From the NCBI RefSeq assembly GCF_965202595.1, contig NZ_OZ241836.1, forward strand, positions 535,095 to 599,094: a DNA stretch of 64,000 nt, given 5' to 3'. Made by a program: the position numbers and the translations under genes. The notes below the pieces were generated by a model. The model saw nothing but the letters and a program-made list of their open reading frames with translations. It had not been told where the DNA came from and searched no databases. Position 1 is the first letter of the stretch. Each line of letters starts with the position of its first letter. Below, in pieces: positions 3,236 through 32,501 of this stretch. Origin of the DNA: Candidatus Poriferisocius sp. (GTDB lineage Bacteria > Actinomycetota > Acidimicrobiia > Acidimicrobiales > Bin134).

Positions 3236-3766
3236 ATGATTGACATGGGCGAAGCCAGGCACTCCAAGTGGTTACTGGCTGCCGCATCGTGGGTGGTAAT
3301 ACTTGCGTTCTTAGCCGTGTTAGTAGTTGTCAGACTTGTATTTGAAGTACGGACTTACAAGCTGACTCCACTGTTTATCATCATGGGTCTGCTTTGCGTA
3401 ATCTTGTCCCGGCTGTTATGGGTAAGAGCATATCCTGATAAGCACCCATATGCCTTTGAGCATTCTGGAATCAAATCTCTGGCTAAAATGTGGCCCAAAG
3501 GTTACTGGGGTGTAATAGCAATTATTTTTTTGGTAGCAATTGTGTTTGATAGCATTTCGATGTTGATTGAACTGTTTACAGCAGGAACTCTTCAACGTTT
3601 ACTCTTGCTACCATTCGGCATTATTGGCATGTACATTGTTATAATGTTGATCCCAAAAACAAGAGAATTGATAATTTCAGAAATAAAAGAACTGCGTGAC
3701 AGGTCATCGCGTTTTCGTAGTTGGTTATCGTATTTTTACAATTACTTCTCGCGGTCCAGGCGTTAG
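3236..3766 (+). CDS. hypothetical polytopic membrane protein on an AT-rich islet
   Basis: 176-aa ORF with about 4 hydrophobic helices (WLLAAASWVVILAFLAVLVVV, LFIIMGLLCVILSRLLWV, WGVIAIIFLVAIVF, LLLLPFGIIGMYIVIMLI). GC is far below the flanks. No family recognised. Confidence 0.5.
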   Translation: MIDMGEARHSKWLLAAASWVVILAFLAVLVVVRLVFEVRTYKLTPLFIIMGLLCVILSRLLWVRAYPDKHPYAFEHSGIKSLAKMWPKGYWGVIAIIFLVAIVFDSISMLIELFTAGTLQRLLLLPFGIIGMYIVIMLIPKTRELIISEIKELRDRSSRFRSWLSYFYNYFSRSRR

Positions 3767-3772: not shown

Positions 3773-6664
3773 TTAGGTGTTGCTGATGGCGATGGCCCGG
3801 GTGTCGGTACCCAGGTAGCTGGCTATAACCAGGGGGTCGTTACGCACTTCGGGAGGGGTTCCCTCGGCGATCACCCGGCCGGCTTCGAGGCAGTACACCC
3901 GGTCGCTGATGCTCATGATTAGGGGCATGTCGTGCTCGATGATCAACATGGCCGCACCCAGCTCCCGGCGGATGTTCACGATGAGCGGCCCGAAGGCTTC
4001 GGTCTCGCGCTGGGCCACCCCCGCGGTGGGCTCGTCGAGGCACAGCACCCGGGCCCCCAGGGCCAAAAGCCCGGTGATCTCCACTATGCGCCGGGTGCCG
4101 GTGGAGAGGTCGCTGATGTAGGAGTCGCCGTAGCGGCCCAAACCCAAAAAGTCGATCAGCTCGTCGGCCTCGGCCCGCCGCCGCCGCTCCAGGGCGAACG
4201 TGCGGGGCAGGTGCAGGGCGGTGCTGATCAGCGGCGTGCGGCCCCTGGCCTCCAGGGCCACCTGCACGGTTTCCCTCACCGTCAGCTCTGGGAACAGTGC
4301 GGCGGCCTGGAACGTTCGCCCCAGCCCGGCCCGGGCTCGCCGGGGCGCGGAAAGCCGGGTGATGTCGGTGCCCAGCAACTCCACCCGGCCGCTCGACGGC
4401 ACGTAGCCCCCCACCGCGTTCATGAAGGTGGACTTGCCCGCGCCGTTGGTGCCGATGAGGCCCACGATCTCATCGGGACGAACCAGCACCGTGGCCCCTG
4501 ACACCGCATCCACACCGCCGAACCGCACGCTGATGTCGCGGCCGCCCAGCATGGGATCGGTGGCCGGCCTCGGGTCCCTGGGACGGTTCAGAGCCACCGG
4601 CACGGTTTTCACCGTCTTGGTCCAGTCGGCGGGACCGAGCCGCCGCTCGGCCAGGACGATGAGGGCGTTGCGGGCGCTGTAGCCGATCTGCACCAGCCCG
4701 CCGGGGAAGTACATGAGCACCACCAGCAGCCCGACGCTGGATGAGAACAGGGCCACGGTTTCGGAGCTGTTGAACAGGTTGGGAAGTCCGTAGACCCAGA
4801 TCGCCCCCAGCACCGCGCCCACCGACGACCCCAGGCCACCGATGACCACCATGCCGACGAGTTGCAGGGAGTCACCCACCTGGAAGAAGCGCTCGCTGAG
4901 CGGCACGTTCTGCACCAGCCCGGCCAGAAGCGCCCCTCCCAGGCCGGCGATCCCACCGGCCAGCGCGAACGAGGACAGCTTGGAGCGAACCGGTCCGACC
5001 GTGTAGGCCGATGCCGAGTCGATGTTGTCGCGCACCGCGATGATGGTGCGGCCGGTGCCGGAGCGGCGCAGCCGGCTCACGATGATCACCACTATCAGCA
5101 GAAAAGCCAGGCAGACGTAGTAGTAGCGCTTCTGGGAGGCAAGATCCAGGCCGAACAGCTCGCCCCGGCGGAACGAAACCGATGAGGTGTTGCCCCCCGA
5201 GAAGAACGGCCTGTGGTAGAGGTACTGCTGGGCGGCCAGCGCGAACACGAACGTGGTAACCGCCAGGTGGAGGCCGCGGACCCGCAACGACCCGATCCCG
5301 ATCACCGCTGCCACCAGCGCCGAGAACAAGCCGGCCAGCACGATGGCGACCATGAACGGGATGCCGCCGGTCTCGAACCGGATGTCGAAGAAGTCGAACG
5401 ACAGGGCATCGCCGGGCAGGAACCCGGTTCCCACGGTGAAGTCCATGGACAGGCCCCGGTGGAGGCCGGCGGCGAACAGTGCCCCCATGCCTGCGAAGGT
5501 CATCTGGGCCAGGGATAGCTGGCCGGCCCAGCCGGTGATGATGGTGACCGATACGCCGCACACCGCGAAGCACAGCACGGTGGCGTACAGGAGCTGGCGT
5601 GAAGGCAGGTCGGTGATGCCGGGAAGTTGCACGAGCACGATGGCGAGCAGCGCCAGGGCACCCAGAGAGATCCGGGACAGGTGCCGCAGCCACCACAATT
5701 GCCGCAGCCGCTCGGGGATCGGCCGCATCTTGGGGGCGAAGGCGAAGGCTCCGGTCTCCCCCCGGCTGCGGCTCTGGAAGTAAACGGCCACCAGAACGGC
5801 CAAAAAGGTCACGAAGTTGATGAGCCCCTGATCGCTCAGGAAGTTGAACCGCAGCAGGGATTCGGAGGCGCCGATCAGCACCCCGGCCAGCACGGCCCGG
5901 GGGAACGAGACCATGCCGGCCAGCACGGCGGCCACCATTGCCTTGCCCAGTGTCAACGACCCCAGATTGATGAGGCCCGAGACCCCGCGGGTTGACCCCG
6001 ACAAGAGGATCATGGACACCGAGGCCAAAAGCCCGGCCATGATCCACACGAAGGTGGACACCTTCTTGGGGTTGATGCCCGACAGGCGGGACAGTTCGGG
6101 GTTGCCGGCCGCCGCCGCCACCGACTTGCCGAACGTGGTGCGGTTCAGAAGCCAGCCCAGCACCAGGGCCAGCACCGGCACCACGATGAGAATGGTTAGC
6201 TGCGGGCCTCGCATGCGTATCCCGGTGTTCAGGACGCTTTCCCAGGTTCTGCCGATCATCACCGGGTAGCTCCGCCCGGCGGTTTCGATGTCGGGAAGTT
6301 GCAGAACCACCAGTTGAGCGAGCTGGGCAATGCCCACCGTGGCCACCAGCACGATCACCCGGGGAGAGGTGAACAGGCGGCGGATCACGGTGAGCTCCAC
6401 CGCGGCGGCGAACAGCGTGCCCAAAAGCAGCGACAGGGCCAGCGCCAGCCAGAACCCCCAGCCGTGGTTCAGCACCAGCAGCGCCAGGACCGAGGCGGCG
6501 ATGATGCCCATGTTGCCCACCGCGAAGTTGATGACCCGGGTGGACCGGTAGATCAGCACTATCCCCATGGCCACCAGGCCGACCGCCAGGCCGTTTACCA
6601 CCCCGTCGAACACGATCTGGCGGGTGATCCACACACCGACCATGGGCAGAGCGGTGGTTTCCAT
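3773..6664 (-). CDS. fused Liv-type ABC importer: LivH-like permease + LivM-like permease + LivG-like ATPase
   Basis: N-terminal LivH-like region (VNGLAVGLVAMGIVLIYRSTRVINFAVG), a central second permease domain, and a C-terminal ATPase (Walker A GTNGAGKST, LSTGTRRIVE, Walker B VLCLDEPTAGV). Start taken at METTALPMVGVW (ATG 6664). Confidence 0.8.
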   Translation of the reverse strand: METTALPMVGVWITRQIVFDGVVNGLAVGLVAMGIVLIYRSTRVINFAVGNMGIIAASVLALLVLNHGWGFWLALALSLLLGTLFAAAVELTVIRRLFTSPRVIVLVATVGIAQLAQLVVLQLPDIETAGRSYPVMIGRTWESVLNTGIRMRGPQLTILIVVPVLALVLGWLLNRTTFGKSVAAAAGNPELSRLSGINPKKVSTFVWIMAGLLASVSMILLSGSTRGVSGLINLGSLTLGKAMVAAVLAGMVSFPRAVLAGVLIGASESLLRFNFLSDQGLINFVTFLAVLVAVYFQSRSRGETGAFAFAPKMRPIPERLRQLWWLRHLSRISLGALALLAIVLVQLPGITDLPSRQLLYATVLCFAVCGVSVTIITGWAGQLSLAQMTFAGMGALFAAGLHRGLSMDFTVGTGFLPGDALSFDFFDIRFETGGIPFMVAIVLAGLFSALVAAVIGIGSLRVRGLHLAVTTFVFALAAQQYLYHRPFFSGGNTSSVSFRRGELFGLDLASQKRYYYVCLAFLLIVVIIVSRLRRSGTGRTIIAVRDNIDSASAYTVGPVRSKLSSFALAGGIAGLGGALLAGLVQNVPLSERFFQVGDSLQLVGMVVIGGLGSSVGAVLGAIWVYGLPNLFNSSETVALFSSSVGLLVVLMYFPGGLVQIGYSARNALIVLAERRLGPADWTKTVKTVPVALNRPRDPRPATDPMLGGRDISVRFGGVDAVSGATVLVRPDEIVGLIGTNGAGKSTFMNAVGGYVPSSGRVELLGTDITRLSAPRRARAGLGRTFQAAALFPELTVRETVQVALEARGRTPLISTALHLPRTFALERRRRAEADELIDFLGLGRYGDSYISDLSTGTRRIVEITGLLALGARVLCLDEPTAGVAQRETEAFGPLIVNIRRELGAAMLIIEHDMPLIMSISDRVYCLEAGRVIAEGTPPEVRNDPLVIASYLGTDTRAIAISNT

Positions 6665-6753
6665 CAACCGCCCTCGGTTCCGAGGAACTGGAGTACTGGG
6701 TCGTCTATTTGGTTGGATGCAGTTTCCATCAACCGCCCTCGGTTCCGAGGAAC
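6657..6753 (-). repeat. 32-bp direct repeat x2 (period 65) at the LivF/LivHMG junction
   Basis: gtttccatcaaccgccctcggttccgaggaac occurs at 6657-6688 and 6722-6753, separated by a unique 33-bp spacer. On the minus strand each copy carries TGATG. The upstream copy ends the MFS-LivF gene and the downstream copy starts LivHMG. Between them lies a 21-codon ORF, METASNQIDDPVLQFLGTEGG (6729 to 6664). Confidence 0.9.
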
Positions 6754-9032
6754 ACCGCCCGGGCCAGGTCGTCACGTTCGGCCAGTTCCTGGGCCGGACC
6801 CTCGAAACGGACCTGCCCCTTCTCGAGGAACACGGCCCGGTCGGCGATGGCCAGCGCCACGTTCAGCGACTGCTCCACGATGATCATGGTCTGGCCCCGG
6901 GCCTTGAGCCCCTCGACGGTTTCCAGCAGCGACTGCACGACCACGGGGGCCAGTCCCAGCGACAGCTCGTCGATTATCAGCACCTCGGGCTCATGCAGCA
7001 TCACCCGGGCCAACGCCAGCATCTGTTGCTGCCCGCCCGACAGGTTGGCGGCCCGCTCCCCGGGTCGTTTGGCCAGATTCGGGAACAGGTCGAACACCTT
7101 CTCGATGCGCCGGTCCCGGTCGTGGGAGTCCTTGCGGTAGGCGTAGGCACCCATGAGCAGGTTGTCGCTGATGGACATGTCGCTCCACACCCCGGCCCCT
7201 CCGGGCAGCATGTGCAGGCCCATGGCCGACCGCTGCTCGGGGGTGGCGAAGGTAATGGTTTGACCGTGCAGGCGCACCACACCCCGCTCGGGGGTGACCA
7301 GGCCGGTGATCACCCTGAGTGCGGTTGACTTGCCCGCTCCGTTGGTGCCCAGAAGGGCCAGCGTCTCCTGGCGGCCCACCTCGAAGCCGAGGTCGAACAG
7401 CACCTGAACCTGCCCGTAGCTGAAATCCACGTCGGCCACCTGGATGGCCGGTATTTCCTCGGGATCGGTTTCGGCCCGGCGGCGCTCCTCGGCCTGCTCC
7501 TCCTGGAGCTCTGCGACGATCAGGGAGAGGTCACGGCGGAGCCGCCCGGCCCCCCTCAGCACGAAGTAGGCCCCGATCGGCATGGCCGAGGCGGTGATGA
7601 GGGTGATGGCGGTCTGCTCGCCGAGCTCGTTCTGGAGGAAGCCGGCGATGATGCTGCCGCCCACCCCGCCCACCATGACCATGAAGAACGTCAAAAAGGC
7701 AGTGCCCATGCCCCGCAGGCGGTAGGGGAACACCGCCTGGATGGCGGGCTGTACCATGGCGAAGGCCCCGCCCAGCAGGGTGGAGTTGACCGCGGCGAAC
7801 ACCATGAACAGGGCGAGATCGGACATGGCGTACTGGATCGGTACCAGCACCCCGATGGGCACCAGCAACACGCCGATCATCCTCAGTGCCCGGTCGGGAT
7901 CTTGGCGGTAGGTGGCGTCGAATCGGCGCCCGACCACCGGTAGGAACATCATCAGCCCGATGCCCGCGGGGGCCACGGCCAGGCCGCGCTCCAGGGCGTC
8001 GAGGCCGAACTCCTCCTCCAGGAAGAACGACTGGATCGAGCCGGCGGGGAAGAGGGCGAAGCCCATCGCCGCGAACGCGATGGTCATGTTGCGGATGGTG
8101 TCGATGTTCCAGATACGGGTGAAGGCGGCCTCCACCGAGATGGGCATCTTGTCGTTCTGCACCAGGCCGGTTCCCAGCACTTCCTTTTGCTCCCACTGGC
8201 CCCGGGGCGGTTCCCGCAGCCAGAAGGCGAACACCGCGAGGGCGGCAGTGGGCAACCCGAGCAGGTAGAACGCCCAGCGCCAGCCGTCGTCGCCGCCCAT
8301 CCACACCGCGATGCCCCCGGCGAGTATCGGGCTGAGGGCCGCGAACACACGCCCCACGCCGGCGTTGGTGGCGAACATGCGGCCCCGGGTCTGAAGGGGG
8401 TAGGTGTCGGCCAGCATGCTGGGATGCACGGTGATGGTGTTGGCCTTGGACATTCCGGTGAGGAACCGAGCGAAGAAGAACATCAGGGCGTTCACCGCCG
8501 CTCCCGACAGCGCGCTGAAGGCGGCGAACGCCCCGCTGGCCAGCCCGACGATGGGGCCGCGCCGGAAGCGGTCGGCCATCCAGCCCATCGGCCCGGCCCC
8601 CAGCACGAAGAACATGAGCGACGCGGTGCTGATCGCGGTTATGGCCCCGTCGCTCACCCCGAAGCTCCTGCCGATGTCGGGTCCCAGGATGGCGACCGCG
8701 CTGTTCTCCAGCTCGTCCAGGCTGTTCAGCGCCAGTAGCACGAGAAATGTCCGGTAGCCCCCCTTCAGCAGGCCCTCCCTGAGGGTGGTCTCCTCGCCGC
8801 CCACGCCGGGGAGCAGGTCATCGGGGAACAGCACCTCGGCCTTATGGGCATCGCGCCGGGCAGCCTCACCCTCGAGCACCGTCGTAGCCAGAGCATCAAT
8901 GGTTTCGTCCCGGGTTTGGGATTCGTCCGGGTTCGGGGTTCCGTTCCCGGTTTGGGATTCGCCCCGGGTCTGCTCGCTGTCCAAATAGTCCCCCCGACTG
9001 TCGCGGGTATCGTCAAACCCGCATCGGCCCAT
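6729..9032 (-). CDS. MFS-type permease domain fused to a LivF-like ABC ATPase
   Basis: Multi-TM region with MFS motif A (GWMADRFRRGPIVGLASG). It is followed in frame by an ATPase (Walker A GTNGAGKST, LSGGQQQMLALARV, Walker B LIIDELSLGLAP) ending FLGTEGG*. Start is uncertain. ATG 9032 (MGRCGFDD) was chosen because the longer ORF runs through a repeat array and into the divergent gene. Confidence 0.7.
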   Translation of the reverse strand: MGRCGFDDTRDSRGDYLDSEQTRGESQTGNGTPNPDESQTRDETIDALATTVLEGEAARRDAHKAEVLFPDDLLPGVGGEETTLREGLLKGGYRTFLVLLALNSLDELENSAVAILGPDIGRSFGVSDGAITAISTASLMFFVLGAGPMGWMADRFRRGPIVGLASGAFAAFSALSGAAVNALMFFFARFLTGMSKANTITVHPSMLADTYPLQTRGRMFATNAGVGRVFAALSPILAGGIAVWMGGDDGWRWAFYLLGLPTAALAVFAFWLREPPRGQWEQKEVLGTGLVQNDKMPISVEAAFTRIWNIDTIRNMTIAFAAMGFALFPAGSIQSFFLEEEFGLDALERGLAVAPAGIGLMMFLPVVGRRFDATYRQDPDRALRMIGVLLVPIGVLVPIQYAMSDLALFMVFAAVNSTLLGGAFAMVQPAIQAVFPYRLRGMGTAFLTFFMVMVGGVGGSIIAGFLQNELGEQTAITLITASAMPIGAYFVLRGAGRLRRDLSLIVAELQEEQAEERRRAETDPEEIPAIQVADVDFSYGQVQVLFDLGFEVGRQETLALLGTNGAGKSTALRVITGLVTPERGVVRLHGQTITFATPEQRSAMGLHMLPGGAGVWSDMSISDNLLMGAYAYRKDSHDRDRRIEKVFDLFPNLAKRPGERAANLSGGQQQMLALARVMLHEPEVLIIDELSLGLAPVVVQSLLETVEGLKARGQTMIIVEQSLNVALAIADRAVFLEKGQVRFEGPAQELAERDDLARAVFLGTEGG

Positions 9033-9083
9033 CAGAGTAGCGTGGGGGGCCGGTAGGTAATCCACAAGCGGGGCAGGCGACTC

Positions 9084-9239
9084 ATGAACAAGCCGTTGAA
9101 CAAACCATCCAACGTTGTGAGCGAGCCGTTGAGCAAGCCATCCAACAGCAAACCATCCAACGTTGTGAGCGAGCCATCCAACAGCAAACCATCCAACGTT
9201 GTGAGCGAGCCATCCAACAGCAAACCATCCAACGTTGTG
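9084..9239. repeat. 36-bp tandem repeat, about 4 copies (one 48-bp variant)
   Basis: caaaccatccaacgttgtgagcgag recurs at 9101, 9149, 9185 and 9221 (periods 48, 36, 36). It lies in the divergent intergenic region between the MFS-LivF gene and the PNPOx-like gene. Confidence 0.9.
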
Positions 9240-9332
9240 GTTGTACTGTTGGACTCGTTGAACCGGCACATGTTGGGAAGCTACGGGGGTACCGAGTTCG
9301 AGACCCCGAACCTGGGGGTGGGTGATGGCTGA
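9084..9332 (+). pseudogene. possible 5' remnant of a sulfatase / alkaline-phosphatase-superfamily gene
   Basis: The plus-frame ORF ends ...KPSNVVVVLLDSLNRHMLGSYGGTEFETPNLGVGDG*. The segment VVVLLDSLNRHMLG.YG....TPNL resembles sulfatase N-termini, but the ORF stops after about 80 aa, where the next gene begins. Confidence 0.3.
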
Positions 9333-9357
9333 GGGTCGGGCCGGGCCCACGGTGCGG

Positions 9358-9795
9358 ATGTCGCCCGAGGAGTGCTGGGAGATGCTCGAGACCTCGGTCA
9401 ACGGCATCCTCACCACGCTCAGGGCCGACGGCCGGCCGGTGGCCCTCCCCGTCTGGTACGTCGTTTTGGATCGGAGGATCTACATGGTGACCCGGGGCAA
9501 GAAGGTGGTGCGGATCCGAAACGACCAGCGCTGCTCGTTGTTGGTGGAGTCGGGGGAGCGGTGGGCCGATCTGCGAGCGGTGCATATGGAGTGCACCGGC
9601 CGGGTGATCGAGCCCTCCGACGAGTTGGCCCAGCGAATCGGTAGGGCCCTCGACGACAAGTACGCCCCGTACCGGACCGCCCAGGACGCGATGCCCGGCC
9701 CAACCAGGGACTACTACCGCAAGAACCTAAATGCCACCATCGAGTTGACCCCGGTCGGCAAAATGCTCAACTGGGACAACCGCAAGCTGTTCTGA
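9358..9795 (+). CDS. pyridoxamine 5'-phosphate oxidase-fold (FMN/F420-binding) family protein
   Basis: About 145 aa with the split-barrel pattern (CWEMLETSVNGILTTLRADGRPVALPVWYVVLDRRIYMVTRGKKVVRIRND). ATG 9358 chosen. Confidence 0.6.
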   Translation: MSPEECWEMLETSVNGILTTLRADGRPVALPVWYVVLDRRIYMVTRGKKVVRIRNDQRCSLLVESGERWADLRAVHMECTGRVIEPSDELAQRIGRALDDKYAPYRTAQDAMPGPTRDYYRKNLNATIELTPVGKMLNWDNRKLF

Positions 9796-9841
9796 AGATA
9801 TTGGTTGCTGTTCTTGGTTGGTCGCCTTTGCAGTTCGCCGC
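9742..9841. repeat. left copy of a 100-bp direct repeat
   Basis: Identical to 10559-10658 except for one base (ggtCggc vs ggtGggc). It covers the last 54 nt of the PNPOx-like gene, including its stop codon (...ELTPVGKMLNWDNRKLF*), plus 46 nt downstream. Confidence 0.95.
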
Positions 9842-10558
9842 AGCAAATCGACGTTCGGGTGCAGGCGTTGGTGGAGTAGTGTTTGCCTATGGCTGATATT
9901 GAGACGCTGGCAAGACCCGTCGCTGTGCGGGCGTGTGATCCGTACCGAATATGGCTCCGCTACTCCGATGGGGTAGAGGGTGAAGTTGACTTATCGAACT
10001 TTGCGGGCCGTGGCGTATTCAAAGCCTGGGACGACCTGTCACTCTTTGCCAGCGTACATATCGGACCTGGGGGAGCCATTTGTTGGGGAGACATCATTGA
10101 TATGTGCCCCGACGCGCTCTACCTGCGGATTACAGGCATCTCGATAGAAGAGTACATGCCGACACTTCGCGGCATCCCAGCGGATGCCTGAACTCTGCCG
10201 CTTCTACGGAATTGTGATCCAGATGTACTACGGAGACCATTCGCCACCTCACTTCCACGCCAGATACGGCAGCTATCGGGCGGTCATAGATATCGATAGT
10301 CTTGCTGTTATCGGGGGTTGCCTTACTCCTAGAGCGACGGGTCTGGTAATTGAGTGGGCTGCGCAGCACCGAAGGGAACTGAGCGCGGCGTGGCGCAGCG
10401 CAGAGCGTAACGAGAACCCAGGCAAGACGCTCCCTTGCCGTAACCGATGGGAGATAGCGGATCTTGCAATATCAGCTTCTCGCGGGTCAGATCAAGATAG
10501 GAGTGAATGTCCCGCTCGTAGGTGTAGCGAAACGCTCGGATCGTGCGGATCACAATTT
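9842..10558. mobile_element. 717-bp inserted cassette bounded by the 100-bp direct repeat
   Basis: Lower GC than the flanks. It carries only the DUF2442/DUF4160 pair. The flanking duplication regenerates the 3' end of the PNPOx-like gene. No recombinase or terminal inverted repeats seen. Confidence 0.45.
9889..10191 (+). CDS. DUF2442 family protein
   Basis: MADIETLARPVAVRACDPYRIWLRYSDGVEGEVDLSNFAGRGVFKAWDDLSLFASVHIGPGGAICWGDIIDMCPDALY matches my recollection of the DUF2442 pattern. The gene overlaps the next gene by 8 nt. Confidence 0.65.
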   Translation: MADIETLARPVAVRACDPYRIWLRYSDGVEGEVDLSNFAGRGVFKAWDDLSLFASVHIGPGGAICWGDIIDMCPDALYLRITGISIEEYMPTLRGIPADA

Positions 10559-10612
10559 GAGTTGACCCCGGTGGGCAAAATGCTCAACTGGGACAACCGC
10601 AAGCTGTTCTGA
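10184..10612 (+). CDS. DUF4160 family protein with an aberrant C-terminal extension
   Basis: FYGIVIQMYYGDHSPPHFHARYGSYRAVIDIDS...LVIEWAAQHRRELSAAWRSAE is the DUF4160 core (about 85 aa). The ORF then continues about 55 codons and reads in frame into the duplicated ELTPVGKMLNWDNRKLF* of the right repeat copy. Confidence 0.6.
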   Translation: MPELCRFYGIVIQMYYGDHSPPHFHARYGSYRAVIDIDSLAVIGGCLTPRATGLVIEWAAQHRRELSAAWRSAERNENPGKTLPCRNRWEIADLAISASRGSDQDRSECPARRCSETLGSCGSQFELTPVGKMLNWDNRKLF

Positions 10613-10658
10613 AGATATTGGTTGCTGTTCTTGGTTGGTCGCCTTTGCAGTTCGCCGC
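10559..10658. repeat. right copy of the 100-bp direct repeat
   Basis: See 9742-9841; 99/100 identical. Confidence 0.95.
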
Positions 10659-10666
10659 GCTGATCC

Positions 10667-11479
10667 CTATTCCCATTTGAATTCGGGGTCGCGCTTTTCC
10701 CGGAAGGCCCGGCGGGCTTCGCGGGAATCCTCGAAGCGCAACAGGCGGGCGGTGTAGTCCTGTTCGGTGCGGTAGGCCTCACGCAGGGGTAGATGCTCGG
10801 TGCGGTTCATGGACTCCTTGGCCAGGCGGAGGGCGATCGGGCTCTTCGACGCCAGCAGGCGGGCCAGCTCCAGGGCGGCCTCCCGGAGAGCTTCAGGGGC
10901 AGTAACCGTGCGGACCGCACCGATCCGGTGCATCTCAGTGGCCGAAACCGGCTCGCCGGTGAAGAACATCTCCCGGGCCTTGTGGCGGCCCATCATCAAC
11001 GAGAGGTGGGCGCTGGCCCCGAGCAGGCCGACATTTATCTCGGGGGTGCCGAACGCGGCGTTCTCGGAGGCCACCAGCATGTCGCAGCACGCGGCCAGGG
11101 CCAGGCCCGCGCCGAGGGCGGGTCCGTTTATGGCCCCGATTACCGGAACCGCGCAGTCGATGATGGCCCACATGGCCTCCCGGGCCAGGTGCCCGGGGTC
11201 GGTCAGCTCCTGGGGATGGCGCTCGGATCGTGGCCGGTTAACGGCCGGGCTCAGATCGGCCCCGGCGCAGAATGCCTTGCGCCCCGCTCCGGTAAAGATG
11301 GCGGCCCTCACCTCCCGGTCGTCGCCCAGGCTCGAGAACAGTTCGCGGATCTGGACGAAGGTATCGTTGTTCACGGCGTTCACCGGAGGCCGATCGAGGG
11401 TGACGATGACAATATGCTCAAACTGTTCAACCTGGATATCGGGCACTGCTTGCTCCCTAACTGCCGGCTGCCGGGCCAC
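10667..11479 (-). CDS. enoyl-CoA hydratase/isomerase (crotonase) family protein
   Basis: AAIFTGAGRKAFCAGADL oxyanion-hole motif, about 270 aa, typical crotonase length. Confidence 0.85.
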   Translation of the reverse strand: MARQPAVREQAVPDIQVEQFEHIVIVTLDRPPVNAVNNDTFVQIRELFSSLGDDREVRAAIFTGAGRKAFCAGADLSPAVNRPRSERHPQELTDPGHLAREAMWAIIDCAVPVIGAINGPALGAGLALAACCDMLVASENAAFGTPEINVGLLGASAHLSLMMGRHKAREMFFTGEPVSATEMHRIGAVRTVTAPEALREAALELARLLASKSPIALRLAKESMNRTEHLPLREAYRTEQDYTARLLRFEDSREARRAFREKRDPEFKWE

Positions 11480-11568
11480 CCCTCACGGTATCGGGTCGGC
11501 CCATCCCTTGAGGACAGCACGCCCTATTTGATGTAGCCTTGCGGTCCGGCGGGTTAGAGGAGGGACTG

Positions 11569-12444
11569 ATGGTGCCCAGGACGTTGAGCGTGACCTTCGA
11601 GGGCCCAGGCACGCATAGTGGTGTACCGCTGGAGGATTTTCAGAAGACCCTTCGCCATGTGCAGGCCGCGGTACGGCTCACGGTCGAGCACCTGTCGGAC
11701 CTGGATGTTCCGCAGCGAGGTCGTCCCTCGAAGTCCGTTCGCGAAGGGAGCGAATTGCATCTGTGCGGGATCACACTAGGGTCGCTGGTTGTCGAGTTGG
11801 AGCTCCCGCCTCCCAAGCAGGAACGACTGTGGGACGACAATGTCGGACCGCAGGCATTGGCAGCAATCTTGAGCCTTGACAGTGACGGGAACGGTGCCGG
11901 ATCTGTTCCCCCATCTGCCGTTGACCAACTGCGCGCAATCTGTACTGATCTGTCATCGGAAGTAGATTCAGTATGGCTAGGTGATGCCAGCGAGAATCGA
12001 AGACTGCAATTCAAGCGGGAGACTTCTGTGAAGCAAATGTCGAATTCACCTGAAGTAGCCTTATTGTATGGTTGGCTGAAAGAGGTGAACTGGGAAAAGA
12101 ACACGGCTCGACTATATGATATGGCTGGCGAATATGTTAATTTGAGATTTGACCCTTCGCTGGATGTCCTGATGCAGAAACTTGCAACTCAGTATGTAGA
12201 GGTATCAGGAACTGGACGATTCAACGATAGTGGAGAGTGGATCACTGTTTCGGTCGACCGGATCGATCACACGAGGTCCTCGGATCAACCGTTTGATATT
12301 GAGTCTGCTCTTGAGCAGGCACGAGACAAGGTGTTCAATCCCGAAGCGGTCATAACAACAAGTGAACCATTTGATGTGGATGACTTCATCGATATCATTC
12401 ACCGAGCCCGTGATGTGGATGATGAGCTACCACAAGCCATGTAG
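11569..12444 (+). CDS. hypothetical protein, candidate large partner/antitoxin of the adjacent PIN toxin
   Basis: 291 aa from ATG 11569, preceded by gaggaggga. Reduced GC. Acidic C-terminus (EPFDVDDFIDIIHRARDVDDELPQAM) ends 9 nt before the PIN gene. No domain recognised. Confidence 0.5.
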   Translation: MVPRTLSVTFEGPGTHSGVPLEDFQKTLRHVQAAVRLTVEHLSDLDVPQRGRPSKSVREGSELHLCGITLGSLVVELELPPPKQERLWDDNVGPQALAAILSLDSDGNGAGSVPPSAVDQLRAICTDLSSEVDSVWLGDASENRRLQFKRETSVKQMSNSPEVALLYGWLKEVNWEKNTARLYDMAGEYVNLRFDPSLDVLMQKLATQYVEVSGTGRFNDSGEWITVSVDRIDHTRSSDQPFDIESALEQARDKVFNPEAVITTSEPFDVDDFIDIIHRARDVDDELPQAM

Positions 12445-12453
12445 GCTTCGATA

Positions 12454-12852
12454 ATGGGTAATATTGTACTTGATACTAGCGTAGTATCCTTCATTTTCAA
12501 GAACGATAGCCGGGCTGGATGGTACATGGCTGAAATTACAGGGATGAGCCCGTGTATCTCCTTTCAGACGTGGGAAGAACTATTATATGGGGCAAAGATC
12601 GGGAAGTGGGGTGCACAGAGAATGAATGATCTAGCCCGTAATCTTGGACAGTACTCCGTGATATGGCCTAACGAAGAGCTAGTCATGCGTTGTGCAGAGT
12701 TGAGGGGTATACAAAAATTAGCGGGGCGCAAGTTGGCGTGTGCTGATGCCTGGATAGCTGCCACGGCTCTGATGCTCAAATGCCCCTTGGCATCTCATGA
12801 TCGGGACTTCAACAATATTCCTGATCTAAAACTCATCAGGTCTCAACAATAG
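12454..12852 (+). CDS. PIN-domain ribonuclease, VapC-like toxin
   Basis: IVLDTSVVSFIF (first acidic residue), WEELLYG, CADAWIAATALML and LASHDRDF match the PIN acidic quartet spacing. 132 aa. Confidence 0.75.
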   Translation: MGNIVLDTSVVSFIFKNDSRAGWYMAEITGMSPCISFQTWEELLYGAKIGKWGAQRMNDLARNLGQYSVIWPNEELVMRCAELRGIQKLAGRKLACADAWIAATALMLKCPLASHDRDFNNIPDLKLIRSQQ

Positions 12853-13147
12853 AAAGGGACCTGTGGGTTCCAGGTCCTTTTATCATTGGTATGTCGACTG
12901 TGTTCAGCACCCGCACCCTCACCGGCCCGAGCACGCTGAGCTTGCTGTCGGGCAGCAGGTCCATCTCGTTATAGACATTGTTGGAATGGGAGGGGTCCAC
13001 CACGGCCAGCTCGCGGCGTACCTCTGCCAGTACTCGATCATTGTCGGCGTTGCCTTCCGTCAACCAGATCAGCGTTTCGGCCGCCTCCACTGTTGCAGAG
13101 GCCAGGTGCCCGGCTGGTGTTCGGCCCCTCAGGAGCCTGCGCAGCAC
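12836..13147 (-). CDS. hypothetical protein (weak call)
   Basis: 103-aa ORF divergent from the acyl-CoA dehydrogenase. It overlaps the PIN gene 3' end by 17 nt. No motif recognised. Confidence 0.2.
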   Translation of the reverse strand: MLRRLLRGRTPAGHLASATVEAAETLIWLTEGNADNDRVLAEVRRELAVVDPSHSNNVYNEMDLLPDSKLSVLGPVRVRVLNTVDIPMIKGPGTHRSLSIVET

Positions 13148-13181
13148 CCGCAGTGTCGCTCCTGGACACTAGGGTCGGGGA

Positions 13182-14477
13182 ATGGCCTGGGATTTTTCCA
13201 CCGACCCCGAGTTTCAGGACCACCTGGATTGGCTCACCGAGCTGATGCGTACCGAGGTGGAGCCGCTCGACCACTACTTTCGGGGGCGGTCGCCGTTCGA
13301 CAAGACCGACGAGGAGGTGCAGACCCATCTGCGCCGTGTCCAGCAGAAGGTGAAGGATCGGGGGCTTTGGGCCTGCCACCTGAAGCCCGAGATGGGGGGC
13401 ATGGGGTTCGGCCAGGTGAAGCTGGCGCTTATGAACGAAATCCTGGGCCGGTCCTCGTTCGGTCCATCGGTGTTCGGCAACCAGGCCCCCGACTCGGGCA
13501 ACGCCGAGATTTTGGCCCACTACGGCAACGACGAGCAGAAGGAGCAGTACCTGAGGCCACTGCTGGCCGGGGAGATCTCCTCGTGCTACTCGATGACCGA
13601 GCCCCAGGGCGGGTCCGATCCCAACCACTTCACCTGCACTGCCCACCGCGACGGCGATGAGTGGGTGATCAACGGCGAGAAGTGGTTCGCATCCAACTAC
13701 CCGAGGGCAGAGTTCCTTATCGTGATGGTCATCACCAACCCCGATGTATCGGTGTACCGGGGGTCGTCCATGATGCTGGTGCCCCACGATGCCCCCGGTC
13801 TGGAGCTGGTCCGCAATGTGGGGGTGGGGGGCGAGCGGCGCGGCAGCCACAGCTACCTGCGGTTCAACGAGTGTCGCATCCCGGCCGAGAACCTCATGGG
13901 TCCCGAGGGGGCCGGGTTCAAGATCGCCCAGACCCGCCTCGGCGGGGGCAGGGTGCACCACGCCATGCGCTCGGTGGGGACGGCCCGCAAGGCGTTCGAC
14001 ATGATGTGCGAGCGAGCCCTCAGCCGGGAGACGAAGGGCACGCTTCTGGCCGAGAAGCAGGCGGTGCAGCACATGATCGCCGACTCCTGGATCCAGATCG
14101 AGCAGTTCCGCCTCCAGGTGCTGCACGCCGCGTGGCAGATAGATCAGGCCGACACCTCCAAGGCCCGCCTCTACATTGCGGGGGTGAAGGTGGCCACGCC
14201 CCGGGTGCTGATGGACGTGATCTTCAGGTCGATGCAGATCCACGGTTCGCTGGGTATGTCCAACGAGACACCGCTGGCCAACATGTGGATGATGGCCCCG
14301 ACCTTCGGGGTGGCCGACGGCCCCACCGAAGTTCACAAGGACACCATTGCCAAGCAAGTGCTGAAGGGCTACCGCCCCTCCGAGGGCCTGTTCCCCACCG
14401 AGCACCTGCCCGCCAAGATCGAATGGGCCCAAGCCGTCATGGCCGAGCGCATCGAGCTGGAGTTGATGAACTCCTAG
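13182..14477 (+). CDS. acyl-CoA dehydrogenase
   Basis: 431 aa with YSMTEPQGGSDPN and ACAD middle and C-terminal domains (...RVHHAMRSVGTARKAFDMMCERA...). Confidence 0.85.
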   Translation: MAWDFSTDPEFQDHLDWLTELMRTEVEPLDHYFRGRSPFDKTDEEVQTHLRRVQQKVKDRGLWACHLKPEMGGMGFGQVKLALMNEILGRSSFGPSVFGNQAPDSGNAEILAHYGNDEQKEQYLRPLLAGEISSCYSMTEPQGGSDPNHFTCTAHRDGDEWVINGEKWFASNYPRAEFLIVMVITNPDVSVYRGSSMMLVPHDAPGLELVRNVGVGGERRGSHSYLRFNECRIPAENLMGPEGAGFKIAQTRLGGGRVHHAMRSVGTARKAFDMMCERALSRETKGTLLAEKQAVQHMIADSWIQIEQFRLQVLHAAWQIDQADTSKARLYIAGVKVATPRVLMDVIFRSMQIHGSLGMSNETPLANMWMMAPTFGVADGPTEVHKDTIAKQVLKGYRPSEGLFPTEHLPAKIEWAQAVMAERIELELMNS

Positions 14478-14498
14478 GTCCGGAGCCGGGCTCGAAGG

Positions 14499-14528
14499 CC
14501 TATCTTTGCCTATCTTTGCCTATCTTTG
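14499..14528. repeat. 10-bp tandem repeat x3 (cctatctttg)
   Basis: Copies at 14499-14508, 14509-14518 and 14519-14528, in the intergenic region upstream of the ABC ATPase. Confidence 0.9.
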
Positions 14529-14553
14529 TTGTGCCGAACCACCGGAGGCCTAT

Positions 14554-15390
14554 GTGAGAGCAGACGAGCCAGCCTCAACGAACGCAAAGATCTCTTCCGT
14601 TGGCCTTGAGCGCGTTTTCGGTGCCGAAACCGCAAACCCCGTGCACGCGCTCGGACCTCTCGACCTGGAGGTGGGCGACGGCGAGTTCCTCTGCATCGTC
14701 GGCCCTTCGGGGTGTGGCAAATCTACCTTTCTTCGGATAGTTGCCGGGCTGGTCAGGCCCACGAGCGGGCGTGTGGAGGTACGCAGCTCGGGACAGTTCT
14801 CGATCCCTTATGCCGTGGTCTTCCAGGATTATTCGATTTACCCCTGGAAGACGGTGGAGCGAAATGTGAGCTTCGGGCTCGAGGTTCAAGGGTTCAGCAA
14901 GAAGGTATCCCTGGAGAAATCCAGGCGATGGCTGGAAATGATGGGCCTATCCGACTTTGCCCGCGCCTATCCCGCCACGCTTTCGGGGGGTATGCGCCAG
15001 CGTGTCGCCATTGCTCGGGCACTGGCCGGCGAGCCCGAGGTCTTGCTCATGGACGAGCCGTTCGCCGCCCTCGACGCTCAGCTTCGCCAGTTGATGCAGG
15101 ACGAATTGCTGGCGATCTGGCAAGCCGACCGGCGGACTGTGCTGTTCATCACCCACTCCCTCGAAGAGGCGATAATGCTGGGTGACCGGGTGGTGGTGAT
15201 GACCTCCCGCCCCGGACGTGTGCTGGTTTCGATTCAGGTCCCCTTCGAGCGTCCCCGCAAGCCCGAGCTGCGCGATTCCGCGGAGTTTGCCCGCTTTCGG
15301 GCCATGTTGTGGGATTACCTCAAGGGGGAGGTGGAGCACTACCTCTCCGATGTTCACGACGAGATGGCCGATTCGAGGGAAGGCCGATGA
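14554..15390 (+). CDS. ABC transporter ATP-binding protein, NitT/TauT (nitrate/sulfonate/taurine) family
   Basis: Walker A GPSGCGKST, LSGGMRQRVAIARAL, Walker B LLMDEPFAALD. In-frame GTG 14554 is preceded by ggagg (14544-14548). Confidence 0.85.
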   Translation: MRADEPASTNAKISSVGLERVFGAETANPVHALGPLDLEVGDGEFLCIVGPSGCGKSTFLRIVAGLVRPTSGRVEVRSSGQFSIPYAVVFQDYSIYPWKTVERNVSFGLEVQGFSKKVSLEKSRRWLEMMGLSDFARAYPATLSGGMRQRVAIARALAGEPEVLLMDEPFAALDAQLRQLMQDELLAIWQADRRTVLFITHSLEEAIMLGDRVVVMTSRPGRVLVSIQVPFERPRKPELRDSAEFARFRAMLWDYLKGEVEHYLSDVHDEMADSREGR

Positions 15391-16298
15391 GCACGGCTGG
15401 ATCTTCAACGGCTGGGCCCTCAATGGCAGGATCTTCACTACCGTCCAACTCGGGGCAGAACGCCGAGCGAATTGTTCGCGAGCCGGGACCGGCGGAGCGG
15501 ATGCCTCGAAGGGCCAGCCGCCGCCGCCGAAGCATCGAACTCACGCTTGCCGTGGCGTTTCCGGCAGTACTGATAGGTCTCTGGCAGGTGGCATCCGGCC
15601 TGGATTGGATCGACGGGCGGCTCTACCCGTCGCCCACCGAGATCATTGCCAAAACCCGCACTCTCTTCGCCGACCGTGATCTTGCCTCGGATGCATGGAT
15701 CAGCGTTCGGCGAATCCTCTGGGGTTACTTGTGGGGAGTGCTGGGGGGCTTGTCCTTCGGGATCGGCATGGGAATGTTCCGCCTCATGCGAAAGACCGGG
15801 GAGCCCACGCTCATTGCCCTGTATACCGTACCGAAGCTCGCGCTCCTACCCATCTACTTGACGATCTTCGGCTTCGGCGAGACCACGATCATCGCGCTGA
15901 TTGCCACCACCGTGTTCTTCTTCGTGTGGCTTTCTGCGATGGCCGCGGTCATGGCCGTGCCCGAAACCTACCGGGAAGCGGCATCCAGCTTCGGGGCGGG
16001 TCGGTGGTTGCTGTTTCGTCACGTCATGCTGCCGGCAGCCCTGCCCTCGATCTTCGTTGGCCTTCGCCTGTCGGCCGGGGTTGCGGTTTTGATGATCGTC
16101 GGGGTGGAGTTCGTGATCGGGGGCGAAGGTTTGGGTTACGTGATCAACCAGGGGCGGCTCCTTGGCCTGATCGAACAGACATATGTGGGAATTGTGATCG
16201 TGGCCGTCATTGGTGTTGTCTTTTCTGCTCTGGTACGGTTCGCCGGAAAACTCGCCTGCCCGTGGTCGAACGACGATCAAGGCCAGCCAATAGCATGA
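15387..16298 (+). CDS. ABC transporter permease, NitT/TauT family
   Basis: ATG 15387 overlaps the ATPase stop (ATGA). About 6 TM helices and a BPD-type transport region (ASSFGAGRWLLFRHVMLPAALPSIFVGLRLS). Confidence 0.8.
   Translation: MSTAGSSTAGPSMAGSSLPSNSGQNAERIVREPGPAERMPRRASRRRRSIELTLAVAFPAVLIGLWQVASGLDWIDGRLYPSPTEIIAKTRTLFADRDLASDAWISVRRILWGYLWGVLGGLSFGIGMGMFRLMRKTGEPTLIALYTVPKLALLPIYLTIFGFGETTIIALIATTVFFFVWLSAMAAVMAVPETYREAASSFGAGRWLLFRHVMLPAALPSIFVGLRLSAGVAVLMIVGVEFVIGGEGLGYVINQGRLLGLIEQTYVGIVIVAVIGVVFSALVRFAGKLACPWSNDDQGQPIA
15393..15437 (+). repeat. 15-bp in-frame tandem repeat x3 at the permease 5' end
   Basis: acggctggatcttca / acggctgggccctca / atggcaggatcttca immediately after the ATGA junction, encoding TAGSS-TAGPS-MAGSS. 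Confidence 0.8.
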
Positions 16299-16384
16299 GC
16301 AAGACCGGTTTCATGGTGTTTCGCCACGGGTTGGGAGGCTCGACACGAACCAAGGCATTTAATTTGCCAAAAGGAAGGATGGAA

Positions 16385-17638
16385 ATGAAACGAGGCAAAG
16401 GGATATGGCCCGCGCTGCTCACCATTTTTGTGGTGTTCGCCCTTGCGGCCACCTCGTGCGGAAACGACGACTCGGGGAACGAGGGCGATGATGCCGCCCC
16501 CGCACCGGCAACCGAACAACCGGCAACCGAACAACCCGCAACCGAGGAGCCGGCCCCCGAGGAACCGGCTGAAGAGGATCCGTTCGCCGGCTGTGGTGAG
16601 GGGGCCGAGGTTGACCCCTCCATCCTGGCCGTCGGCCGGCCGGTGGCTCGGTGCGAACCCGGGTATCCCAAGGCGATCCCGCTGGCGGAGCGTCAAACCA
16701 TCAACTTCTCCTCGTCCTTCAAGCTGGAGTTCATAGCCCCCATTCTGCTGGCCGACTCCCTGGGTGAGTTCGAGAAGGAGAACCTTGATTTCAACTTCAT
16801 CAACCTCGGGCTCTCCGATGCTTTGCCCCAGATCGGTACCGGCCAGATCGATCTGGGGGTGGGTGGCATCGAAGCGGCGGTGTTCAACGCCATCGACAAC
16901 GATTTCGACGTGCGGTGGGTGAGTGCCAACTTCTTCCCCCCGAACGCCGGTGACAACAGTGTTCCCCAGACGGGGGTATGGGCCCGCGCCGACGTTTTCT
17001 CCGACCCGTCCAATCCCGACATTGCCGAGTTGGAGGGCACCAAGATGGCTTCCGCCGTCGGGCTCAGCTCGGTCATCGCTTATCCCATTGCCGAGGCGCT
17101 GAAGCCCGCCGGGTTGGTGTTCGGAGTGGATGTGGAGGCCGAGCAGATTCCCTCCACCGACATGATCCTGGCCATGGAGAACAACGCCGTTCAGTCGGCA
17201 TGGATCCTGGATCCGCTGTGGGGGGCACTGGTGGATCGTCCCGATGAATTCGTGTTCGTCACCGGGCAGCCTCCGGGTGAACCCATCGGCGGTCTTTTCG
17301 GCGGCCCATCGTGCCGTGAGACCAAGCGGGATGCCTGCGTGGCGTTCCACAGAGCGATCATCAGGACAATAAACACCTACCTCACCGGTGACTACCACCA
17401 GAACGACGAGATCGTTGAAGCCATCGCCGAGGCCATTGATCGGGAGCCGGACGCGGTTCGGGCCACACCGTCTCTGCTGTTCGACTGGGAGATCCGCGAG
17501 GGCACAGCGACCCGGGCCCAGGAGGCATTCATCAGCTTCGCGGAAGCGGGTGTGACCGTCGTCGAGTACGACGAGCCCTATCCCGAGGACCAAGTGGTGG
17601 ATCGTTCGATCTACCTGGAGGCCATCGGGCGGCAGTAG
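16385..17638 (+). CDS. ABC transporter substrate-binding lipoprotein
   Basis: MKRGKGIWPALLTIFVVFALAATSCG gives a signal peptide plus lipobox. A PATEQPATEQPATEEPAPEEPAEE linker follows, then a periplasmic-binding-type body. SD aaggaagg lies upstream. The long track ORF 15695.. overlaps the permease and is not used. Confidence 0.7.
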   Translation: MKRGKGIWPALLTIFVVFALAATSCGNDDSGNEGDDAAPAPATEQPATEQPATEEPAPEEPAEEDPFAGCGEGAEVDPSILAVGRPVARCEPGYPKAIPLAERQTINFSSSFKLEFIAPILLADSLGEFEKENLDFNFINLGLSDALPQIGTGQIDLGVGGIEAAVFNAIDNDFDVRWVSANFFPPNAGDNSVPQTGVWARADVFSDPSNPDIAELEGTKMASAVGLSSVIAYPIAEALKPAGLVFGVDVEAEQIPSTDMILAMENNAVQSAWILDPLWGALVDRPDEFVFVTGQPPGEPIGGLFGGPSCRETKRDACVAFHRAIIRTINTYLTGDYHQNDEIVEAIAEAIDREPDAVRATPSLLFDWEIREGTATRAQEAFISFAEAGVTVVEYDEPYPEDQVVDRSIYLEAIGRQ

Positions 17639-17695
17639 CGCTGGGTGGCAATCAGAGTTGGTTGGGGATCAGCGCTGGGTGGCAATCAGAGTTGG
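17637..17695. repeat. 25-bp direct repeat x2 (period 34) across a convergent stop-stop junction
   Basis: agcgctgggtggcaatcagagttgg at 17637-17661 and 17671-17695. Copy 1 contains the TAG of the binding-protein gene. Copy 2 contains the TCA (TGA) of the minus-strand ACAD gene. Confidence 0.9.
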
Positions 17696-18729: not shown

Positions 18730-18753
18730 GATTCCGGTCCCAGGTCGAGGAGG
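18642..18753 (-). repeat. 46-bp direct repeat x2 (period 66) at the ACAD/ACAD junction
   Basis: cggcatcgggggtttggttcacgattccggtccc[g/a]ggtcgaggagg at 18642-18687 and 18708-18753, separated by a 20-bp spacer. The GTGA stop/start overlap is duplicated. The period is in frame and gives PGTGIVNQTPDA twice. Confidence 0.9.
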
Positions 18754-23228: not shown

Positions 23229-23322
23229 CTTCGGCGATCAGGGGATTGCGTTCTTGGTTTTCGGTGATCAGGGGGTTGGGTTCTTGGTTTTCGGCGATCA
23301 GGAAGGCGATCAGGGGATTGCG
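23221..23322 (-). repeat. 30-bp tandem repeat, about 3.3 copies, between the CoA-transferase stop and the ferredoxin start
   Basis: ttcttcatcttcggcgatcaggggattgcg / ttcttggttttcggtgatcagggggttggg / ttcttggttttcggcgatcaggaagg / cgatcaggggattgcgccc. Each unit combines the ferredoxin start region with the CoA-transferase end (..AIP*). The ATG is retained only in the copy next to the ferredoxin. Confidence 0.85.
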
Positions 23323-32296: not shown

Positions 32297-32326
<30 letters not shown>

Positions 32327-32452: not shown

Positions 32453-32501
32453 AAAGTCGCCCACCAGATCTTTCGGATCTCTCGACGAGGCTCGGGCGTG
32501 G

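Follow-up and report, generated by a model that had tools for sequence, protein, structure and literature searches.

A DhiTA-like toxin–antitoxin remnant between 100-nt direct repeats in Candidatus Poriferisocius: comparison with a sister lineage suggests that the repeat is younger than the insert

The 64-kb stretch of contig NZ_OZ241836.1 from Candidatus Poriferisocius sp. (hereafter the window, in whose positions coordinates are given) contains a repeat–insert–repeat structure at the 3' end of a PNPOx-like gene, and we analyzed its composition and its history. The PNPOx-like gene (split-barrel, F420/FMN-type) lies at 9322-9795 on the plus strand and matches Pfam PNPOx_N with 40.5 bits; its NCBIfam matches, to F420-dependent PPOX-class families, are all under the cut-off. 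Two direct repeats of 100 nt each, R1 on the left (9742-9841, plus strand) and R2 on the right (10559-10658, plus strand), are identical at 99 of 100 positions, the sole mismatch being a C in R1 and a G in R2 at repeat position 15. Their starts are 817 nt apart, and the intervening DNA, the insert S, comprises 717 nt (9842-10558). Each copy consists of the final 54 nt of the PNPOx-like open reading frame (ORF), that is, codons 141-157 and the stop codon (TGA, 9793-9795 in R1), followed by 46 nt of spacer. R1 is continuous with the functional gene, and R2 is a non-functional copy of the gene end and spacer. On the right, the convergent gene of an enoyl-CoA hydratase/isomerase (ECH; 10667-11479, minus strand; Pfam ECH_1, 174.5 bits) forms the border of the site. 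The GC content is 56.1% in the insert, 54% in the repeat and 66.7-67.0% in the flanking genes. R1 and R2 are the longest dispersed repeat pair within the window and cannot be a chance match. The initial annotation of this DNA had described the repeats, their makeup from the gene end and spacer, and the lower-GC segment between them, and all of this was confirmed, coordinates included.

The source is a metagenome-assembled genome (MAG), and repeats shorter than a read can mislead assemblers, so that a false join or a collapsed strain bubble had to be considered. The called PNPOx protein (137 amino acids) retrieved through an exact match an independent 84.6-kb long-read contig from another sample, L041 (L-numbers denote the loci and contigs compared, and X-numbers public sequencing runs). 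This contig is 100% identical to the window over 12.4 kb, both repeats included, and thus two independent long-read assemblies from different samples agree. Unitigs from five public runs covered the passages from PNPOx to R1, from R1 through the insert to R2, and from R2 to ECH with zero differences, and in two runs the unitig depths were 1:1:1, with the repeat core at 2x. An assembly artefact therefore has a practically negligible probability.

The insert carries two co-directional ORFs with an 8-nt overlap on the plus strand. The first (9883-10191, with an alternative ATG start at 9889) encodes an apparently intact DUF2442 protein (Pfam PF10387, 46.5 bits against a cut-off of 23.9 bits), whose homologues have 94-100 amino acids. 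The second (10184-10612) encodes a frameshifted DUF4160 protein (Pfam PF13711, 69.3 bits against a cut-off of 23 bits). A DUF4160/DUF2442 pair has been reported as the DhiTA type II toxin–antitoxin (TA) system of Dickeya dadantii 3937 (PMC8198452; PMC12065111), and a comparable one has been found to increase the persistence of plasmids in Thermus (PMC12724237). The pair in the window resembles DhiTA in being two small, adjacent, overlapping genes with the same Pfam domains, and its best NCBIfam matches are DhiT and DhiA. However, these matches stay under the NCBIfam equivalog cut-offs (DhiT 84.4 bits against 100 bits; DhiA 26.8 bits against 200 bits, far below), and the toxin frame is not intact. 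The gene order also differs: in D. dadantii the toxin gene comes first (PMC8198452, Table 1), and DUF4160 is typically followed by DUF2442 (PMC12065111), whereas DUF2442 comes first in the window and likewise in L025, L038, L039, and L067. Judged by its domains, the pair is a predicted DhiTA-like TA remnant, with DUF2442 as the DhiA-like antitoxin and DUF4160 as the DhiT-like toxin.

The toxin ORF has lost a single nucleotide (T) after 10427, where the window reads AAGA|CGCT and the homologues and a sister lineage read AAGATCGC. After this deletion, the old stop codon of the normal 86-codon frame (TAA, 10441-10443) is out of frame; from codon 81 of 86 onward, the last 5 residues are replaced and 56 codons are added, giving a 142-aa chimera. 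The extension passes antisense through a methyltransferase gene fragment (see below) into the PNPOx-end copy and stops at 10610-10612. Nearly all DUF4160 homologues among the matches listed have 86 amino acids, and those read end in PGKIAPLP or PGKIDPLT before the stop. The initial annotation had noted that the DUF4160 ORF lacks its normal stop and reads in frame into the duplicated end of the host gene; this was borne out, and the 1-nt deletion is the cause. The 142-aa chimeric protein is already recorded in the protein collection as a DUF4160 protein.

The insert had been described as carrying only the DUF2442/DUF4160 pair, which proved incomplete. An internal fragment of a type III restriction–modification (RM) methyltransferase gene (mod) lies at 10468-10553 (86 nt, minus strand); it corresponds to about residues 181-208 of 853 and has deletion joints on both sides. 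This fragment is 87% identical in nucleotides and 84% identical in amino acids to the mod gene of L040, which was recognized by PADLOC as MTase_III (1.5e-141) and adjoins a restriction endonuclease gene. L040 also carries a DUF2442 protein 81% identical to that of the window, with the mod gene 5.8 kb away in a relative orientation matching the window. Because the mod fragment has two joints and the TA component and mod occur together in L040, S is better described as the stump of an islet than as a tidy two-gene cassette; on these comparisons it is what erosion has left of a larger foreign defence islet (TA pair plus type III RM module) with at least two internal deletion joints. In L040 itself (8001-16323), the DUF2442 gene is an orphan without DUF4160. 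After it come an IS3-family transposase pair, low-GC DNA, and then the type III mod gene alongside a restriction endonuclease gene of the BPTD_3080 family; this arrangement may be a model of the islet before erosion. As for a close donor, no DUF4160 protein above 74% and no DUF2442 protein above 81% amino acid identity was found among 5.8 billion proteins, and the plasmid search gave only distant gene-level matches.

No recombinase or transposase was found in the insert or the adjacent window genes, as judged from the ORF list and Pfam, and the only Pfam domains of the insert are DUF2442 and DUF4160. The corresponding statement of the initial annotation thus holds for the insert and its neighbours, but says little, because the insert is the eroded stump of a larger islet. 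The ends of 9842-10558 bear no terminal inverted repeats, the best pairs (10-12 nt) being internal, and no attC-like site or imperfect palindrome was found at either end. Neither the repeat nor the insert contained a detectable hairpin, terminator, promoter or Rfam family; the spacer had no significant fold, and no other copy of the insert was found elsewhere in the window. Direct repeats around a small cargo-like segment recall transposons, insertion sequences (IS) and integron cassettes. The window differs from these in having no transposase, integrase, terminal inverted repeats or attC site, and in an insert that ends inside a truncated gene. The duplication measures 100 nt, against the fixed 2-15 bp expected of a transposon or IS. 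At this size the repeat has, to our knowledge, about ten times the length of known target-site duplications.

Searching with the PNPOx protein, we obtained 31 orthologous loci (79-87% amino acid identity) from MAGs of sponge-associated Acidimicrobiales, many of them labelled Ca. Poriferisocius. Most relatives lack S. In 24 of the 31 related species genomes the site is empty, PNPOx and ECH abutting, and at most of these empty sites the two stop codons are about 12-50 nt apart. Further empty sites were found on contigs L042 and L043 and on a contig from X6, and the empty site rebuilt for the window aligns with those of the relatives. Since all these loci are without an insert, the site was ancestrally empty, and the spacer between the two genes is fast-evolving and lineage-specific. 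The proposal that a cassette was inserted here with a 100-bp target duplication therefore stands as regards the insertion, whereas its second half is weakened, since R2 is either younger or homogenised and the repeat at the corresponding site of L025 contains cassette sequence.

Six relatives (L009, L010, L016, L018, L024, and L025) carry other inserts, of 0.8-3.6 kb, between PNPOx and ECH, and no recombinase was recognized among their ORFs, which were read by eye without a domain search. In L025, a different DUF2442/DUF4160 pair (55% amino acid identity) sits at the same site in the opposite orientation between copies of the PNPOx end. Its repeat unit of 218 nt starts at PNPOx codon 123, continues through the spacer, and takes in 94 nt from the 3' end of DUF4160; because the unit includes cassette sequence, it cannot be a target-site duplication. 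Different stop codons, TAG in one and TGA in the other, distinguish the two copies, and the layout of copy 2 is exactly that of the only copy in L016, as would be expected after a crossover between differing alleles or the integration of a circle. The repeats in L025 and L016, which are 218-421 nt long, are no more than 87-95% identical after drift. In L016 (8054-12870), the PNPOx-ECH pair is tandemly duplicated with decayed copies, among them a second PNPOx (residues 21-157, 95% identical) and start and end fragments of ECH; a Fic-domain gene joined to a DUF4160 3' fragment is common to L016 and L025 (8364-10531). Smaller changes were seen at the same junction: a 37/35/37 duplication with both gene ends inside in L015 (8457-8565), four 37-nt copies of the ECH end in L017 (8441-8625), and decayed ECH-end copies in the spacers of L027 and L029. 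The PNPOx/ECH spacer is a recurrent hotspot of insertion and duplication in sponge-associated Acidimicrobiales.

Direct repeats of a gene 3' end around foreign DNA, an insert that is the remnant of something larger, and several different inserts at one junction in relatives are what would be expected if an island had integrated site-specifically through an integrase that was later deleted, with the PNPOx 3' end as att site and the island bringing the replacement gene end. The repeat boundaries, however, vary (codon 141 in the window, codon 123 in L025), and in L009, L010, L018, and L024 the insert is not bordered by repeats at all. The repeat also holds 46 nt of the lineage-specific spacer at 100% identity between R1 and R2, which is unlikely for a foreign attP, and the age of R2 discussed below poses the same problem here. 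Finally, none of the seven occupied sites examined (the six of the relatives by eye) has a recombinase in or beside the insert, although it could have been deleted. On balance, we regard such an integrase island as very unlikely.

The cassette itself might also be mobile, if DUF4160, with its invariant H-F-H, were a small nuclease or transposase of HUH-like type and generated long duplications. The PPHFH motif and a Tyr are invariant in 34 homologues, and of the cassettes examined three (window, L025, and L039) have repeats on both sides. The cassette of L039 (3474-4354), however, merely lies within a 47-nt tandem array, with 3.4 units on its left and 1.5 on its right, and is ambiguous; at the next gene boundary of L039 there is a 28/33/28 repeat (5754-5842). 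The cassettes of L038, L040, and L067-L072 have no flanking repeats, which shows that such repeats do not belong to the gene family as such. Homologous cassettes share no conserved ends. The AlphaFold model of the toxin is confident (pLDDT 91) and has no significant structural neighbour in the PDB, HUH enzymes included, and the sequence search for HUH likewise gave no match. The family is, moreover, a validated or proposed type II TA toxin (PMC8198452; PMC12065111). The occurrence of protein P0017 on 13 contigs was considered as a sign of mobility and rejected, since all 10 places listed are one locus. Self-mobility of the pair is thus hardly credible.

The age of the repeat can be judged from a sister lineage seen in two sponge metagenome runs, X7 and X8. 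A single 3267-nt contig of X7 spans PNPOx, R1, the cassette, and ECH, and contigs of X8 cover the locus too. X7/X8 and the window share the junction R1|AGCAACTCGACG, and because this left junction is identical, the two lineages carry the same insertion event; as they have both the left junction and the cassette in common, the cassette was at the site before they split. The lineages differ from each other by about 9% in the coding part of PNPOx, at 8 of 100 positions in R1 (9 of 100 as laid on R2), at 20 of 326 positions (about 6%) in the cassette, and at 83 of 834 in ECH. The DUF4160 end is unshifted in X7/X8 and reads AAGATCGCTCCCTTGCTGTAA, while most of the toxin gene has been taken out in X7 by a 216-nt deletion with 6-nt microhomology. 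The initial annotation had named vertical conservation of the cassette across the lineage as an observation that would speak against its reading; we found it conserved in this one diverged sister lineage and missing from the other relatives. A metagenome scan with an X7-specific 30-mer gave no match, and one with a 19-mer common to the window and X7 gave 23 chance matches, none with the cassette.

X7/X8 have only one copy of the repeat, with 61 nt between the equivalent of window position 10456 and the ECH stop, the last 30 of which are T/G-rich. The right flank of X7 was also tried as a diverged copy of the spacer and rejected, as the match was not significant (785 of 5000 shuffles scored as well). 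If R2 had existed before the split and had evolved freely, at least 6-9 differences per 100 nt from R1 would be expected, and one is seen (Poisson P about 0.017 to 0.001). This comparison suggests that the repeat is younger than the insert, unless R2 has been kept identical to R1 by gene conversion. The drifted repeats of L025 and L016 argue against efficient gene conversion in this clade. At repeat position 15, the C of the left copy matches L004 and X7, and the G of the right copy matches the other aligned relatives, so the single difference between the copies may be allelic in origin.

The edges of the repeats are informative about how the second copy arose. R2 runs on its right into the native 8 nt preceding the ECH stop, as a crossover with an empty allele predicts. 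At its left edge (10558/10559) there is an illegitimate joint to the mod fragment, mod residues 181-208 against PNPOx codon 141, and the right edge of R1 is the old insertion junction. Taken together, these edges have the topology of one crossover within R and one end-join. We therefore favour, with about an even chance of its being correct, an exchange between an occupied and an empty allele through one homologous crossover and one illegitimate joint, either by Campbell-type integration of a circle or by homology-facilitated illegitimate recombination (HFIR).

In this history, for which the steps are pieced together from the comparisons above, the islet would first have arrived 46 nt beyond the PNPOx stop, at a time when the window and X7/X8 lineages had not yet split. 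Microhomology-type deletions would then have eroded it independently in both lineages; such deletions are active here, to judge from the 5.6 kb missing from the window (2-5 nt overlap at the joint) and the 216 nt missing from X7 (6-nt overlap). Later, and in the window lineage only, the exchange between occupied and empty alleles would have made the right-hand copy, with the homologous crossover inside the PNPOx end and spacer and the illegitimate joint between the broken mod gene and PNPOx codon 141. The exchange may have gone by a Campbell-type single-crossover integration of a circularised 817-bp fragment (R plus S) or by HFIR. At that time or earlier, the 1-nt deletion would have fused the toxin ORF to the downstream sequence. 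The length of 100 nt would be arbitrary under the allele exchange, because it would be set by the chance end of a fragment and not by an enzyme. The TA pair, now decaying, may have helped the structure to persist by penalising pop-out between the repeats.

Comparable events have been described in bacteria. In E. coli conjugation, 56 of 60 clones had duplications of homologous segments (109-950 bp in 14 sequenced), formed when partly degraded DNA had closed into circles again and integrated by a single crossover (PMC3240628). HFIR is the proposed origin of arrays of orphan immunity genes and of strings of orphaned 3' regions in type VI secretion system (T6SS) and Rhs loci (PMC5361080). The window resembles these cases in that its repeats are the recipient's own sequence and that one border is a native continuation and the other an illegitimate joint. 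It differs in that the event is reconstructed here from a natural genome, and 100 nt is at the short end of the homology range.

Several points weigh against the exchange between alleles. The donor, the circle, and an empty conspecific allele are all unobserved, and without the donor the microhomology at the joint cannot be read; with L040 as a proxy for the unseen donor, 0-6 nt are allowed between mod and PNPOx. That DUF2442/DUF4160 pairs with PNPOx-end repeats were inserted twice independently at one site (window and L025) is a coincidence for which the exchange can offer only a hotspot together with selection. Furthermore, 60 of 91 unaligned letters of X7/X8 were recovered and 31 remained unread, where a short remnant of a second copy could lie, and an ancient 100-nt duplication followed by gene conversion in the window and a deletion of about 145 nt in X7/X8 also fits. 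Unitig depths cannot reveal excision or an empty allele, as the circular, tandem, and empty forms make no new 31-mers. The depth of the insert (9812-10603) was equal to that of the flanks in X1 and X2 and 1.2-1.9x in X3 and X5, with ratios that are not self-consistent. GC bias was rejected as the source of the excess in X5, since a unitig with a 48%-GC islet was as deep as 67%-GC unitigs. X5 also has minor variants (about 2%) at 9884-9992. In X3 and X5, the repeat-core depths do not fit a simple extra-copy model, and the depths are too noisy to prove an extra copy.

Shorter repeat–filler–repeat structures occur elsewhere in the window. The initial annotation had pointed to a 32/33/32 and a 46/20/46 case with the same geometry; the repeat–insert–repeat arrangement is real in both, and the second is properly 47/19/47. 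In the first (6657-6753), the overlapping stop/start of two minus-strand ABC-transporter genes is duplicated, and in the second (18641-18753) the junction of two minus-strand genes with a former overlap of about 18 nt, around a filler TGTGGTTGTGGACGCTGGT without a template in the window. In these short cases, one copy serves as the end of the upstream gene and the other as the start of the downstream gene with its ribosome-binding site. The ABC-transporter junction is single-copy in L029, L019, and L031, and L004 (1715-1890) has at this junction its own tandem duplication of about 68 nt with a 4-5-nt filler. Because its limits differ from those in the window, such gene-boundary duplications recur independently. 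Templates for the fillers were not found within 64 kb beyond chance, the one exception being merely a longer tandem unit. That a single mechanism underlies these cases and the 100/717/100 structure, as had been suggested, was not demonstrated: the short cases duplicate overlapping stops and starts within operons and have short fillers.

In L004 (7847-8010), there are also three tandem copies of about 71 nt in which the stop of an AMP-ligase gene overlaps the PNPOx start (GATGGCTGA). Additional repeats in the window, tandem or nearly so and built of 30-72-nt units, lie at 17637-17701, 23213-23337, 30185-30464, 32298-32480, 36221-36336, 36834-36903, 40106-40181, 44685-44772, 45539-45651, 51904-51979, and 59418-59506. 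By a crude gene call based on GC at third codon positions (GC3), virtually all of them coincide with the start or end of a gene or with a stop/start junction. Duplicating gene boundaries thus appears to be habitual and pervasive in this genome and in its relatives. Mycobacterial interspersed repetitive units (MIRU) are intergenic tandem repeats within operons. They are similar as actinobacterial units of 30-70 nt at gene boundaries that overlap stop/start codons, a likeness that concerns the short repeats and not the 717-nt insert; they differ in that the units here are local gene ends specific to each locus and not a dispersed sequence family.

This habit bears on the strongest competitor of the allele exchange, in which the insertion and the duplication are one step: nicks widely staggered at a gene end and then filled in, or a template switch during replication there, would have captured the foreign DNA, X7/X8 would later have lost one copy, the copies in the window would have been homogenised, and the same process would make the gene-boundary duplications of 28-68 nt. 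The clean repeat–insert–repeat order agrees with this, both copies being complete and directly bordering the captured DNA, as do the many short repeat–filler–repeat and tandem duplications at gene boundaries in the window and relatives, and their independent recurrence at the same junctions (L004 and the window at the ABC-transporter genes; L015, L017, L027, and L029 at PNPOx/ECH). The repair of adjacent nicks is cited as yielding tandem duplications in plants (Schiml et al. 2016, cited in PMC6954433), and the E. coli topA R168C mutant forms de novo tandem duplications of 2-19 bp (PMC6954433). These products arise without pre-existing repeats and sometimes contain filler, which fits the duplications of 28-68 nt here; the reported bacterial cases, however, reach 2-19 bp, and the copy in the window appears younger than its filler.

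The divergence values are difficult to reconcile with such a single step, since R1 and R2 differ by 1%, while the cassette differs by about 6% and the flanks by 9-10% from a lineage with the same left junction, and X7/X8 are without the second copy. The repeats of the relatives (218-421 nt) are not homogenised, that of L025 contains cassette sequence, and the short fillers have no template within 64 kb. In addition, the left edge of R2 abuts a twice-truncated gene, which points to a later deletion or joint and not to an original boundary. We consider the one-step duplication unlikely, if still a serious competitor. A related and somewhat more doubtful possibility is that the sponge-symbiont Acidimicrobiales have a lineage-specific mode of break repair (for example, paired nicks at gene boundaries, fill-in, and end joining) that regularly duplicates 30-100 nt at gene ends and in which foreign DNA could become trapped between the copies. 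If so, genes would be acquired without a recombinase and with the flanking genes spared, and the 100/717/100 structure would be the largest visible product.

Other features of the window were recorded around the locus. Upstream of PNPOx lies a sulfatase stump (9084-9342), of which the first ~77 codons are left, fused 8 nt upstream of the PNPOx start. The relatives and X7/X8 have about 5.6 kb at this place (the remaining sulfatase codons, a gene for a periplasmic binding protein, two small genes, and one for an AMP-dependent ligase), and the joint of the deletion in the window has an overlap of 2-5 nt (CCTGG/GG). The N-terminal part of the sulfatase is variable, relatives matching only from residue ~46, and at 9082-9239 the truncated N-terminus contains four copies of a 36-nt tandem repeat (first spacing 48) with SKPSNVVSEPSN-like units. 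Beside the ECH start is a 48%-GC islet (11539-12852) with a 301-aa ORF without a Pfam match and then an ORF with a VapC-like PIN domain; the place of this islet next to ECH is taken in L042 by a P450 gene. Three more low-GC islets contain a 176-aa membrane protein (3236-3766), a 230-aa protein with a helix-turn-helix-like N-terminus beside a 284-aa protein (55351-56890), and an 82-aa ORF beside a 139-aa ORF (57865-58529). From their translations, these three look like more TA- or defence-type pairs.

Taken as a whole, the object combines features of familiar types. A DhiTA-like TA remnant belonging to a decayed defence islet sits at an intergenic hotspot, and the repeat around it looks like a scar of ordinary recombination rather than the mark of some new insertion enzyme. 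A caution for the reading of genomes follows: when a small cassette is bounded by a long 'target duplication', an unseen insertion enzyme is not the only possible cause. Here the sister lineage suggests that the repeat is younger than the insert, and a hidden gene fragment reveals the insert to be a stump. The recorded 142-aa 'DUF4160' protein is a chimera and thus an annotation artefact. The locus also illustrates the decay of a TA/defence islet at a hotspot, with a toxin gene that is damaged in both lineages, being frameshifted in the window and shortened by 216 nt in X7/X8, and that is missing next to the orphan DUF2442 of L040. The duplication of gene boundaries in such compact symbiont genomes, which arose repeatedly and independently in sister species, is the more intriguing lead, and if it reflects a particular repair pathway, it would bear on the evolution of operon junctions and spacers.

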